Origin: a virus
Virus genome (UHGV): UHGV-2053560
Reading direction: 5' to 3' (one strand)
Length of the DNA: 15,005 nucleotides
Under the pieces are notes generated by a model, which ran no database searches, was not told where the DNA came from, and saw only the letters and a program-made list of their open reading frames with translations. The translations under genes were made by a program, and so were the position numbers. Shown here in pieces: positions 6,670-11,860 of this stretch (positions are counted from its first letter, which is position 1; each line of letters starts with the position of its first letter).

Positions 6670-7104
6670 TTATTCTTGTTCTCTGGTCAAATTATATAGT
6701 TGGAAAACAAGGATGCATATATGAATGAACGATGCAGAGGCAATGCCGATGGCGATAGTGGGTATCATGTAGCCGCTTATGCTGGAAAGAAGCAATAACC
6801 CGCAGAAAAACAAAGCTCCAAGCTCAACAAAACTAAGGGCATAGACAATAACTACCGATGTCATATACCCATACTCTCTAATCTTGGCCAGTCGGCGCGT
6901 TCTGCTTCCGATTAGAAACGTCAAGGCAGCAATCAGGATTGCAATCATGGTTCCTGCATATGATGACAATGTCGCCCCAAGACCATCTCTATGAGCTGAA
7001 AAAGAAACACCAGGAATGTAGTGGCGGAAAAGGAGATAGCAAATGCTTACGATAACGTAAGGAATTATTACTATGTAAACACCAGGCATGATTCTGTTCC
7101 GCAT
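6670..7104 (-). CDS. rexB: RexB, membrane component of the Rex abortive-infection/exclusion system
   Basis: 144 aa, multiple hydrophobic helices, directly downstream of rexA in the cI transcript. Size, position and sequence agree with lambda RexB as I recall it. Confidence 0.9.
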   Translation of the reverse strand: MRNRIMPGVYIVIIPYVIVSICYLLFRHYIPGVSFSAHRDGLGATLSSYAGTMIAILIAALTFLIGSRTRRLAKIREYGYMTSVVIVYALSFVELGALFFCGLLLLSSISGYMIPTIAIGIASASFIHICILVFQLYNLTREQE

Positions 7105-7119
7105 AATTACTCCTGATAA

Positions 7120-7959
7120 TTAATCCTTAACTTTGCCCACCTGCCTTTTAAAACATTCCAGTATATCACTTTTCATTCTTGCGTAGCAATATGCCATCTC
7201 TTCAGCTATCTCAGCATTGGTGACCTTGTTCAGAGGCGCTGAGAGATGGCCTTTTTCTGATAGATAATGTTCTGTTAAAATATCTCCGGCCTCATCTTTT
7301 GCCCGCAGGCTAATGTCTGAAAATTGAGGTGACGGGTTAAAAATAATATCCTTGGCAACCTTTTTTATATCCCTTTTAAATTTTGGCTTAATGACTATAT
7401 CCAATGAGTCAAAAAGCTCCCCTTCAATATCTGTTGCCCCTAAGACCTTTAATATATCGCCAAATACAGGTAGCTTGGCTTCTACCTTCACCGTTGTTCG
7501 GCCGATGAAATGCATATGCATAACATCGTCTTTGGTGGTTCCCCTCATCAGTGGCTCTATCTGAACGCGCTCTCCACTGCTTAATGACATTCCTTTCCCG
7601 ATTAAAAAATCTGTCAGATCGGATGTGGTCGGCCCGAAAACAGTTCTGGCAAAACCAATGGTGTCGCCTTCAACAAACAAAAAAGATGGGAATCCCAATG
7701 ATTCGTCATCTGCGAGGCTGTTCTTAATATCTTCAACTGAAGCTTTAGAGCGATTTATCTTCTGAACCAGACTCTTGTCATTTGTTTTGGTAAAGAGAAA
7801 AGTTTTTCCATCGATTTTATGAATATACAAATAATTGGAGCCAACCTGCAGGTGATGATTATCAGCCAGCAGAGAATTAAGGAAAACAGACAGGTTTATT
7901 GAGCGCTTATCTTTCCCTTTATTTTTGCTGCGGTAAGTCGCATAAAAACCATTCTTCAT
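7120..7959 (-). CDS. rexA: RexA, sensor/activator component of the Rex exclusion system
   Basis: 279 aa, immediately downstream of cI on the same strand. Size, position and N-terminus (MKNGFYATYRSKNKGKDKRS) agree with lambda RexA as I recall it. Confidence 0.9.
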   Translation of the reverse strand: MKNGFYATYRSKNKGKDKRSINLSVFLNSLLADNHHLQVGSNYLYIHKIDGKTFLFTKTNDKSLVQKINRSKASVEDIKNSLADDESLGFPSFLFVEGDTIGFARTVFGPTTSDLTDFLIGKGMSLSSGERVQIEPLMRGTTKDDVMHMHFIGRTTVKVEAKLPVFGDILKVLGATDIEGELFDSLDIVIKPKFKRDIKKVAKDIIFNPSPQFSDISLRAKDEAGDILTEHYLSEKGHLSAPLNKVTNAEIAEEMAYCYARMKSDILECFKRQVGKVKD

Positions 7960-8071
7960 AATTCAATCCATTTACTATGTTATGTTCTGAGGGGAGTGAA
8001 AATTCCCCTAATTCGATGAAGATTCTTGCTCAATTGTTATCAGCTATGCGCCGACCAGAACACCTTGCCGA

Positions 8072-8788
<717 letters not shown>

Positions 8789-8796
8789 TTAAATCT

Positions 8797-8860
8797 ATCA
8801 CCGCAAGGGATAAATATCTAACACCGTGCGTGTTGACTATTTTACCTCTGGCGGTGATAA
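8797..8860. promoter_or_regulatory. oR3-oR2-oR1 operators with divergent pRM and pR
   Basis: TATCACCGCAAGGGATA (8797-8813), TAACACCGTGCGTGTTG (8819-8835) and TACCTCTGGCGGTGATA (8843-8859). pR -35 TTGACT (8832-8837) and -10 GATAAT (8855-8860); cro SD AAGGAGG at 8875-8881. Confidence 0.9.
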
Positions 8861-8876
8861 TGGTTGCATGTACTAA

Positions 8877-9086
<210 letters not shown>

Positions 9087-9093
9087 ATAACCC

Positions 9094-9125
9094 CGCTCTT
9101 ACACATCCCAGCCCTGAAAAAGGGC
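9094..9125 (+). promoter_or_regulatory. nutR (boxA and boxB)
   Basis: CGCTCTTA (9094-9101) and boxB hairpin GCCCTGAAAAAGGGC (9111-9125), directly after the cro stop. Confidence 0.8.
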
Positions 9126-9204
9126 ATCAAATTAAACCACACCTATGGTGTATGCATTTATTTGCATACATTCAATCAATTGTTATCTAAGGAAATACTT
9201 ACAT

Positions 9205-9483
9205 ATGCAACTTACAAGTACTCGCAAGAAAGCGAATGCAATTACAAGCAACATCCTGAATCGAATTGCTGTACGTGGTCAGCGAAAGGTTGCTGATGCA
9301 TTAGGGATTAATGAATCGCAAATTTCGCGATGGAAAGACAGCTTTATCCCAAAGATGGCCATGCTTCTGGCTGTGCTGGAGTGGGGTGTTGAAGACGAGG
9401 AATTAGCAGAGCTGGCAAAGAAAGTAGCCATGGTGCTGACAAAAGAAAAGCCTCAAGACTGCTGCAACAGTTTTGAGGCCTGA
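9205..9483 (+). CDS. cII: CII-like transcriptional activator (non-lambda allele)
   Basis: ATG at 9205 preceded by TAAGGAAATACTTACAT, as at lambda cII. Product carries the conserved core ESQISRWK...IPK..MLLAVLEWGV, but the N- and C-termini differ from lambda CII. The ORF-track extension to 9145 is rejected. Confidence 0.75.
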   Translation: MQLTSTRKKANAITSNILNRIAVRGQRKVADALGINESQISRWKDSFIPKMAMLLAVLEWGVEDEELAELAKKVAMVLTKEKPQDCCNSFEA

Positions 9484-9517
9484 TGTAGAAAGACTGGATC
9501 AATCCACAGGAGTAATT

Positions 9518-9679
9518 ATGACAAAACGTCGTAAGAAATACCAGGAAAAAGAAGAGATTCGACACCCTGATTCACATGAGGGATTAGTGGTAGCCGCAGC
9601 AAATAACAGGGCGTTCGCAGAGCGCCTTGTTGGTGTTTACAGACTAGCCAAAGCAGGAGTGAAACATGGGCGTCGTTAA
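9518..9679 (+). CDS. Small basic hypothetical protein (53 aa) between cII and the O-like gene
   Basis: ATG at 9518 preceded by CAGGAGTAATT; product [53 protein letters not shown]; overlaps the O-like start by 14 nt. Confidence 0.4.
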   Translation: MTKRRKKYQEKEEIRHPDSHEGLVVAAANNRAFAERLVGVYRLAKAGVKHGRR

Positions 9680-10487
9680 GTTAGCTGATTACAGGCCTCA
9701 ACTGGAGGTCGTGGAGCATCGCGTGGCAGACACCGAAGATGGTTTCATGCGCGTTGCTAACGAGATTACCGACAGTCTGCTGATGGCTGATTTAACCGTC
9801 CGGCAGTTGAAGGTGATGCTCGCTATCATGCGCAAGACATACGGATTCAATAAGCCGATGGATCGACTCACAAACACGCAGATAGCAGCCATGACAGGTA
9901 TTCATCACACTCATGTTTGCGCTGCCAAGCGCCAGCTTATTGAGCGTAAATTCCTCATTGCTGATGGCGTGAAAATCGGAGTGAACAAGGTGGTTTCGCA
10001 GTGGATTAGCCAGGACAGCTTAACATTAGCCAAAACAGCTAATAAAACATTAGCCAAGTCGGCTAATGGGTATAAGCCAAGTCAGCTAAACACAAAAGAC
10101 AATATACAAAAGACAATAAATACAAATACCCCCTTACCCCCTAACGGGGGCGGCGATGGGCAGGTTAAACCTGAACGTCGCAAGGCAGAACGAATCGACT
10201 ACGAATCCTTCCTGAACGCCTACAACACCGAAGTCGGTGACAGACTTCCACACGCTGTTGCGGTCAACGAGAAACGCAAACGCCGCCTGAAGAAAATCAT
10301 CCCGCAACTGAAAACGCCAAACGTGGACGGTTTCAGGGCGTATGTCAGGGCGTTTGTGCATCAGGCCAAGCCGTTTTACTTCGGAGACAACGACACGGGC
10401 TGGACGGCCGATTTTGATTACCTGCTGAGAGAAGATTCGTTAACGGGAGTTCGTGAAGGGAAGTTTGCAGACAGGGGGATTGCATGA
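9666..10487 (+). CDS. Replication initiator, lambda O-like N-terminal domain (P22 gene 18-like)
   Basis: 273 aa. [36 protein letters not shown] parallels lambda O (LTKRQFKVLLAILRKTYGWNKPMDRITDSQL). Iteron array and AT-rich tract lie inside the gene; SD AGGAGTGA before the ATG. Confidence 0.8.
10004..10150 (+). repeat. Replication-origin-like iteron array, AT-rich tract and GC palindrome inside the O-like gene
   Basis: Four ~20-bp imperfect repeats with internal dyad symmetry (GATTAGCCAGGACAGCTTAA, CATTAGCCAAAACAGCTAAT, CATTAGCCAAGTCGGCTAAT, ATAAGCCAAGTCAGCTAAAC), then an AT-rich stretch (10091-10128) and CCCCCTAACGGGGG. Confidence 0.6.
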
Positions 10488-11860
10488 GACAGGATATCGA
10501 AGCGAGCGTTATCGGCGGTCTGCTGATTGGTGGATTAACGCCAACCGCCAGCGACGTTCTGGCAACGCTTGAGCCGGAAGCGTTTTCAATTCCGCTCTAC
10601 CGGAAAGCCTTCGAGGTTATCCGCAAGCAGGCGAGAAACAGAAACCTAATCGACGCGCTGATGGTTGCCGAGGCGTGCGGAGAGGAGCATTTCACGTCAA
10701 TCCTGATGACCAGCAAAAACTGCCCGAGTGCCGCAAACCTGAAGGGATATGCCGGAATGGTCGCGGATAACTATCACCGCCGTCTGGTGCTGGAAATCAT
10801 GGATGAAATGCGTGAACCAATTCAGAGCGGAACCATCGACGCATCGAGTCAGGCGATGGATGAACTTGTAAAGCGTCTTTCAGCCATCAGAAAGCCCCGT
10901 GACGAGGTAAAACCTGTACGGTTAGGGGAAATCATTACTGACTACACTGACACGCTTGACAGGCGTCTGAGGAACGGAGAAGAGTCCGATACCCTGAAGA
11001 CCGGAATCGAAGAACTTGATGCCATCACCGGAGGGATGAACGCGGAAGACCTGGTGATAATCGCTGCTCGTCCTGGTATGGGGAAAACCGAACTGGCGCT
11101 GAAGATTGCCGAAGGCGTTGCAAGCCGCGTTATTCCTGGTTCTGACGTCCGGCGCGGAGTATTGATTTTCTCAATGGAAATGAGCGCATTGCAGATTGCA
11201 GAGCGAAGTATTGCCAACGCCGGGAGGATGTCGGTTAGCGTGCTGCGAAATCCTGCATCGATGGATGACGAGGGCTGGGCACGTGTTGCTAACGGCATGA
11301 GTCAGCTTGCAGATTTGGATGTATGGGTAGTCGATGCCTCGCGGTTATCGGTCGAAGAAATACGCTCAATCGCAGAACGGCACAAACAGGAAAATCCAAA
11401 CCTGTCACTCATCATGGCGGATTATCTTGGCCTGATTGAGAAGCCGAAAGCAGACCGCAACGACCTTGCAATTGCTCACATCTCCGGAAGCCTGAAGGCG
11501 ATGGCGAAAGACCTAAAAACGCCTGTTATCTCCCTGAGTCAGCTTTCGCGCGATGTTGAGAAGCGACCAAACAAACGCCCGACAAACGCAGATTTGCGTG
11601 ATTCAGGAAGCATTGAACAGGACGCAGACTCAATCATCATGCTCTATCGGGAAGCGGTATATGACGAGAACAGTAGCGCCGCGCCATTTGCTGAAATCAT
11701 CGTGACGAAAAACCGTTTTGGCTCGCTTGGTACGGTTTACCAGCGATTCTGTAACGGACACTTTGTTGCATGTGACCAGGATGAAGCCAGACAGATTTGC
11801 ACAGCATCAAATGCGCCTGCTGCGCGTGGCAGACGATATGCACAAGGGGCGGACGTATGA
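10484..11860 (+). CDS. DnaB-family replicative DNA helicase (P22 gene 12-like)
   Basis: 458 aa. Walker [14 protein letters not shown], DnaB-like motifs ([44 protein letters not shown]). ATG overlaps the O-like stop (ATGA). Confidence 0.9.

Follow-up and report, generated by a model that had tools for sequence, protein, structure and literature searches.

Phages lambda and P22 carry annotated counterparts of the element reported here. In lambda, the replication origin oriλ is located centrally within the initiator gene, downstream of pR, and comprises four imperfect inverted repeats of 18–19 base pairs (bp), the iterons. Dimers of the N-terminal domain (N-domain) of the initiator O bind to the iterons, and the neighbouring AT tract melts on supercoiled DNA (PMC7466680). 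In P22, four repeats of ~20 bp within gene 18 have been described in a paper on phage L as the counterpart of the lambda iterons. In addition, a lambda hybrid has been described in which orf48-18-12 of P22 replaces O-P; because this hybrid is viable and not subject to the inhibition directed at oriλ, the P22-type origin must lie within orf48-18-12 (PMC3349717). Here, we analysed a stretch of 15,005 nucleotides (nt) of the UHGV virus genome UHGV-2053560 (the window, numbered from its first letter), in which a similar set of repeats is embedded in a gene for an O-like initiator. This element is very probably the theta-replication origin of a lambdoid prophage, whose O-like initiator is paired with a phage-encoded DnaB-type helicase as in phages HK97, ST104 and Nil2.

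Architecture of the origin and its relation to lambda and P22

A search for the consensus ATTAGCCAAGTCAGCTAA with at most three mismatches returned four matches, the iterons of Table 1, and no other match on either strand of the 15-kb window. Only 0.01 matches were expected by chance, four were reached in 0 of 200 shuffled sequences, and an independent repeat search recovered the same family. The start-to-start spacing of the iterons is 20/24/23 bp. They encode residues 114–142 of the 273-residue initiator, directly past its Pfam domain, and lie in the linker between its N-domain and C-terminal domain (C-domain). When dyad symmetry was scored on the 19-mers, iterons 1 to 4 showed 8, 12, 16 and 10 self-complementary positions, respectively, i.e., all are imperfect inverted repeats. 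Iteron 3 reads ATTAGCC-AAGTC-GGCTAAT, and the other copies finish in AGCTAA or AGCTTA. A preliminary description of this DNA had proposed, for positions 10004–10150, four repeats of ~20 bp followed by an AT-rich tract and a short GC palindrome. Its span agrees with the feature to within 1 nt, and all of these parts were found as described, the repeats being 19 bp long. It had also assigned to each repeat a dyad of the form TTAGCC...GGCTAA; the symmetry is present in all copies, but perfect arms of this sequence occur in iteron 3 only.

The last iteron adjoins the A-rich tract. The GC content of 40-nt windows across 10080–10139 is 27–33% (0.275–0.325), compared with ~52% in the flanks, and within the tract itself 9 of 41 positions (22%) are G or C. 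The tract is skewed toward A over T, with an AT skew of up to 0.65, and contains two tandem 14-bp units, ACAAAAGACAATAT and ACAAAAGACAATAA. Two copies of the direct repeat TACCCCCT at 10127–10142 stand ahead of the palindrome, which forms the sole hairpin beyond the AT tract when the region is folded as single-stranded DNA.

The initiator belongs to the same family as O. Its residues 19–113 match the Pfam family Phage_rep_O (PF04492) with an E-value of 5.8e-33 and a score of 113.7 bits against a cut-off of 28.7, and the protein falls into phrog_345, 'replication initiation O-like' (E = 3e-105). The gene downstream encodes the helicase, with DnaB_C (E = 9.5e-78) and DnaB N-domain (E = 4.5e-13) matches, and its start overlaps the initiator stop codon (ATGA). 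The Phage_rep_O domain, the helicase, and the agreement with P22 and lambda in offset and spacing all bear out the proposal of a lambdoid origin inside an O-like gene.

The four annotated O-binding iterons of lambda start at 39034, 39054, 39078 and 39101, which is the 20/24/23 spacing of the window. An A-rich tract beginning with ACACAAAAGACA is also common to both, and lambda shares the start ACACAAAAGACAC with the window and P22. The two initiators, however, share 42% identity over the N-terminal 134 residues only, and their C-domains are unrelated. Further differences concern the iteron sequence, which is ATCCCTCAAAACGAGGGA in lambda, and the sequence of the palindrome that follows the AT tract. 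Moreover, P recruits the host DnaB in lambda, whereas the window has a phage-encoded helicase and no P gene.

The resemblance to P22 is closer. In the P22 record (BK000583), a rep_origin is annotated at 32840–32984, i.e., at offset 352–496 of gene 18, and the corresponding offset in the window is 338–484. The P22 iterons (TCGGTAAAAC; starts 1434, 1454, 1478 and 1501 in survey locus L002) are likewise four and show the same spacing. Over the AT tract and the palindrome, the two sequences (ACACAAAAGACAATATACAAAAGACAATAAATACAAATACCCCCTTACCCCCTAA[C/A]GGGGG) are almost identical base by base, so the comparison with P22-like origins that had been suggested as a check revealed equal spacing, an equivalent offset and a near-identical right part. 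P22 gp18 and the window initiator share 51% amino acid identity over their whole length, with 60% over 104 residues in the C-domain and 42% in the N-domain, and gene 18 is paired with the gene 12 helicase as the window initiator is with its own DnaB-type helicase.

Even closer are HK97 (gp54), ST104 (gene 18), Nil2, HK446 and several Shiga toxin (Stx)-converting phages, which have the same iterons, AT tract, palindrome and DnaB-type helicase partner; no difference of substance from the HK97/ST104/Nil2/HK446 group was found. Across its entire length, the initiator gene shows 98.5–98.9% nucleotide identity with the best phage matches, among them ST104 gene 18, Nil2 o, HK446 O and those of several Stx-converting phages. 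The origin segment 9960–10200 (241 bp) is 98–99.6% identical to that of the ST104/HK97/Nil2/HK446 group, with 99.2% for HK97 O.

A survey covered 11 phage loci and 80 prophage loci, the latter from one genome per species. The codons of a conserved [N/T/D]TK[D/E] motif served as an anchor defined at the protein level, and four 18-mers were taken at the offsets found in the window (−84, −64, −40 and −17). In 74 of 74 anchored loci the four 18-mers were 0.54–0.94 mutually identical, compared with a mean identity of 0.24–0.28 and a maximum of 0.46 for N-domain controls of the same spacing. In the 11 phages, the codon-anchored comparison aligns the repeats in register and shows a conserved ACACAAAAGA tract behind them, and this motif is common to the window, lambda, P22 and 70 other loci. 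Fourteen of the 17 loci that lack the anchor carry three to six clear repeats with 20/24 spacing. The other three comprise one truncated locus, one that was mis-anchored yet has TGTCAC repeats, and one from Enterobacter sichuanensis (L092), in which a domain is inserted after the N-domain and no clear repeats are seen. Absence of the repeats from orthologous initiators, which the preliminary description had named as an observation that would speak against an origin, is therefore not what the survey found, with repeats in all anchored loci and at least three clear copies in 14 of the 17 unanchored ones. As a separate observation, five iterons of the window type with 20/27/24/24 spacing are present in an Arsenophonus locus (L029, 1843–1957).

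Iterons are also typical of plasmids of the pSC101, R6K, RK2 and P1 type, which carry them as direct repeats of ~17–22 bp outside the rep gene, encode a Rep_3/RepA-type initiator that binds them and usually have DnaA boxes. The window does not fit an iteron-plasmid origin: the repeats lie inside the initiator gene, each is dyad-symmetric, and no plasmid Rep family was matched.

Table 1. Positions of the origin parts and of neighbouring features in the window
Feature	Position	Strand	Sequence	Remarks
Iteron 1	10005..10023		ATTAGCCAGGACAGCTTAA	codon phase 0, ISQDSL; most degenerate copy
Iteron 2	10025..10043		ATTAGCCAAAACAGCTAAT	codon phase 2, TLAKTAN
Iteron 3	10049..10067		ATTAGCCAAGTCGGCTAAT	codon phase 2, TLAKSAN; perfect 7-bp inverted arms
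Iteron 4	10072..10090		ATAAGCCAAGTCAGCTAAA	codon phase 1, YKPSQLN; adjoins AT-rich tract
A-rich/AT-rich tract, presumed unwinding element	10089..10129		two ACAAAAGACAATA(T/A) units	low GC; homologous to lambda and P22 tracts
GC palindrome	10137..10150		CCCCC-TAAC-GGGGG	5-bp stem, 4-nt loop
Initiator gene, 273 residues	9666..10487	+		N-terminal Phage_rep_O domain, origin-bearing linker, P22 gp18-type C-domain
DnaB-type replicative helicase, phage-encoded, 458 residues	10484..11860	+		phrog_19
cI-like repressor	8072-8785	minus
Cro	8886-9086			upstream of initiator gene
CII	9145-9483			upstream of initiator gene
pR-like promoter	8833..8861	+	TTGACT-17-GATAAT	between cI and cro; consensus match only

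Selection on the DNA sequence of the repeats

The position of the iterons within a reading frame raises the question of whether the repeats are a mere by-product of a repetitive, flexible linker between the two initiator domains, with no function as DNA. The linker encoded here is indeed hydrophilic and of low complexity, and iterons 2 and 3 give the near-identical peptides TLAKTAN and TLAKSAN. The repetitive linker peptide noted in the preliminary description is thus present in the translation of the open reading frame (ORF) at 9666–10487, but the peptide is repeated for these two copies only. Across the four iterons, one DNA motif is translated in three frames (phases 0, 2, 2 and 1) to give the unrelated peptides ISQDSL, TLAKxAN and YKPSQLN. 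Because the copies start in differing codon phases, a repeat at the peptide level cannot explain copies 1 and 4, and the dyad symmetry found in every copy would be meaningless for a peptide.

Codon usage points in the same direction. Among the 19 loci whose iterons belong to the class of the window (76 iterons from many genera), T2, G5, C6, G14, C15 and A18 are invariant. Within iterons 2 and 3, TTA accounts for 37 of 38 Leu codons, compared with 26 of 128 (20%) in the N-domains of the same genes, and rare codons are forced by the iteron repeats. Where the AT tract begins, Thr is encoded by ACA and Lys by AAA in 72 of 72 distinct loci, whereas elsewhere in the N-domains ACA accounts for 30% and AAA for 52%. 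The RKTYG motif is also invariant, yet its codons are mixed. Since the frames differ while iteron positions and the codons TTA, ACA and AAA are fixed, selection acts on the DNA sequence itself. In addition, the repeat sequence follows a distant motif in the N-domain and not the adjacent C-domain, as described below. Taken with the frames and the fixed synonymous sites, this makes a by-product of the linker extremely unlikely.

A different pattern of conservation was found for the dyad that follows the AT tract. Of 73 loci, 48 have a perfect dyad with a stem of 5 bp or more, located 25–95 nt past the beginning of the tract, compared with 18 of 73 downstream control segments; this score leaves out the imperfect, GAATTC-centred dyads of the lambda type. 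At least eight different sequences occupy this place, including variants of CCCCC..GGGGG, GTCATCTTGCGATGAC, GAGCGAAGAGGTTCGCTC, CGAACAAGTTCG and CCAAACCCAC..GGGTTTGG, so that the position of the dyad is kept across origin classes and partner types and its sequence is not. The GC dyad of the window might be a functional part of the origin that is defined by structure, such as a hairpin or cruciform that delimits melting or indicates where the helicase is loaded or priming takes place, but this assignment is tentative and somewhat doubtful. A second dyad, CAGGTTAAACCTG, is located at 10167–10179 within the sequence coding for the C-domain (arms also at 10153–10166 and 10168–10181). Its equivalent in locus L039 is CAGGCTAAGCCTG, with both arms altered and the pairing kept, and variants are present in L030 and L049. 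The retention of this second dyad may be due to chance.

Correspondence between iteron class and initiator N-domain

The iterons of the surveyed loci fall into classes, and each class is accompanied by its own motif at residues 78–86 of the N-domain (Table 2). The correspondence is one-to-one, with no exceptions among 72 classified loci. P22 combines TTTACC.AATCGGTAAA with the motif MAPTKCS, while the window combines ATTAGCCAA..CAGCTAA with IHHTHVC. On these sequences, the window is placed in the specificity class of HK97 and ST104 and not in that of P22, and the P22 and window initiators would not be expected to recognize each other's origin.

Table 2. Iteron classes and the accompanying N-domain motifs
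Iteron class	N-domain motif	Loci
ATTAGCCAAnnCAGCTAA	IHHTH[VI]C	19, including the window; also L029, with five copies
TTAGCnnAAnnTGCTAA	KHxTHCS	12
TTACCCGAATCAGGTAA	[IM]LPHKCS	10
TTTACCGAATCGGTAAA	xxTKCS	10, including P22
TGTCACCAAAACAGTGAC	LPRQKVN	15
ATCCCTCAAAACGAGGGA	LPVKRCN	6, including lambda
TGTCTCTAAnnTAGAGACA	LSRQNVN	not tallied

The alignment columns that carry most information on iteron class cluster at residues 79–85 and 45–55. This measure is inflated by shared ancestry, and the residues can only hint at where the recognition surface lies. For residues 1–120, AlphaFold2 run on the single sequence gave an unusable model (mean predicted local distance difference test score, pLDDT, of 41.5), and its helices at residues 70–77 and 81–93 are at most suggestive. 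The Spearman correlation with iteron identity is 0.51 for N-domain identity and 0.24 for C-domain identity, which is a weak summary since specificity is categorical; the one-to-one class table is the better test.

Natural combinations of domains bear on the same point. If the N-domain recognizes the iterons, N-domains and their iterons should have been swapped together in nature, and such swaps, where found, support recognition by the N-domain. Indeed, the C-domain type of the window is seen with five iteron classes, namely in L011 (97% identical), L022 (83%), L039 (76%), L090 (75%) and L089 (67%). Conversely, the iteron class of the window also occurs with unrelated C-domains and once with a lambda P-type partner (L025). 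C-domains and downstream helicase partners reassort freely with respect to iteron class.

Individual loci illustrate such combinations. Salmonella phage BTP1 (L011, 1100–1279) has the N-domain and iterons of P22 together with the C-domain that is 97% identical to that of the window; the similarity switches inside the shared AT tract and palindrome, suggestive of a recombination junction at this place. The comparative table shows recombination junctions at the AT tract. In the phages Stx2a 981509 (L012, 1043–1240) and JEP4 (L013), a window-type C-domain is joined to an unrelated, DnaD-like N-domain (phrog_2514, phrog_27581). There, about eight copies of a 12-bp repeat, CCGCACA(T/A)G/A.., replace the iterons, and a short AT tract and a CCCCCC..GGGGG dyad come next. 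The entire cassette of N-domain and repeats appears to have been swapped. Three contigs of the survey carry labels that look misassigned (L014, L027 and L091). The 'Bacillota bacterium MAG' contig (MAG, metagenome-assembled genome) is 99% identical to the first 150 residues of the window initiator, the 'Paraclostridium MAG' contig encodes an initiator of the enterobacterial type, and a 754-nt 'Bradyrhizobium' contig has iterons and an AT tract identical to those of lambda. Misbinning or contamination is the probable cause.

The same correspondence bears on the possibility that the repeats serve another factor, such as an attenuating regulator, an antisense terminator or the trigger of a host defence sensor. 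A scan indeed flags a terminator-like hairpin on the minus strand at 10068–10048, formed by iteron 3 and a neighbouring run of A, and the region folds better as single-stranded DNA than shuffled sequences do (z = −4.1). Furthermore, binding of the OLD defence protein to the lambda iterons is reported in a preprint from 2026. However, the hairpins are a direct consequence of the dyad symmetry of the iterons, and terminator-like matches are not enriched (2 observed against 2.5 expected in shuffles). A search of the window against Rfam at gathering thresholds gave no match, which leaves a reading of the repeats as structured RNA unsupported. A one-to-one link between repeat class and initiator N-domain across 74 loci is expected from initiator binding and would not be expected for a host factor or a terminator, and recognition by a defence system would be an added consequence of the iterons, not an alternative function. 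Service to such a factor in place of the initiator is thus highly improbable.

With the iterons taken as initiator-binding sites, the matched pairs of iteron class and N-domain motif, of which there are at least eight, might amount to a code by which Phage_rep_O domains recognize their sites. The table of pairs offers a simple rule that predicts which lambdoid initiators act on which origins.

Proposed initiation, prophage context and distribution

By analogy with oriλ, binding, melting and helicase delivery in the class of the window can be arranged in a sequence of four steps. Rightward transcription from the pR-like promoter would express the initiator and cross the origin. Dimers of the Phage_rep_O N-domain would then bind the four iterons (10005–10090) and wrap them into an O-some-like complex, and the resulting strain would melt the adjoining A-rich tract. 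Finally, the C-domain of the initiator would bring in the phage DnaB-type helicase, rather than a P:DnaB complex.

Several points weigh against this assignment. The searchable literature yielded general statements on the origins of lambda, P22 and L, and no binding, footprint or plasmid-replication experiment for the class that combines ATTAGCC..AGCTAA with HHTHVC. Even the P22 origin is annotated in BK000583 only as 'similar to phage lambda'. Iteron 1 is degenerate, with three mismatches and only 8 of 19 dyad positions. Residues 79–85 are viewed as a recognition helix on the basis of covariation, which shared ancestry confounds, and of a poor model, and no PDB sequence was matched at E = 10 by either the full protein or a nine-sequence N-domain profile. 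Lastly, the prophage in the window may never replicate from this origin.

The last point leads to a further explanation, in which the origin is genuine by descent but is now a relic, the prophage being defective or cryptic, as many resident lambdoid prophages are defective. The window begins within an integrase gene and resembles an integrated prophage, and the origin segment, which was found in 443 of 5426 complete Escherichia coli genomes, is chromosomal in 457 of 460 places. Yet, the initiator and the helicase are full length, and nothing is missing from the four iterons, the AT tract or the palindrome. The pR-like promoter and the genes cI, cro and cII are intact as well. The near-identity of the initiator gene to those of phages ST104 and HK446, and of the origin segment to HK97 O, also argues against decay. 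A relic is therefore unlikely, and a theta-replication origin that has kept its parts is the preferred interpretation.

The surrounding region is the early-right operon of a lambdoid prophage. A scan of 8700–10600 gave the pR-like site as its single promoter-like match, and this promoter would, to judge from its sequence and position, drive rightward transcription across cro, cII, the initiator gene and the origin. RexB-like (6670–7104) and RexA-like (7120–7959) exclusion genes are also present, and Erf, SSB and integrase genes lie further to the left of cI. The lambda-like immunity region (6670–9483) is joined to a replication module of the P22/HK97 type, a typical lambdoid mosaic.

The origin of the window is already known in kind, with near-identical copies in many deposited phages, and it leaves the understanding of such origins unchanged. 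Annotation of the Nil2 region, like the feature names given for the matches, covers the gene for the replication protein alone and not the origin. The occurrence of this origin type in the E. coli genomes counted above and in many Stx-converting and Salmonella phages makes its recognition useful for annotation. Effective toxin production is said to need replication of the Stx phage (PMC7466680).

Two smaller features lie between cII and the initiator gene. Positions 9493–9525 match exactly a conserved 33-mer that covers the lambdoid oop promoter and 5' end (sequence from PMC3349717). A small ORF at 9518–9679 (53 residues from the ATG at 9518; phrog_1331, unknown function) overlaps the initiator start and is equivalent to orf48 of P22 and ORF53 of Nil2.

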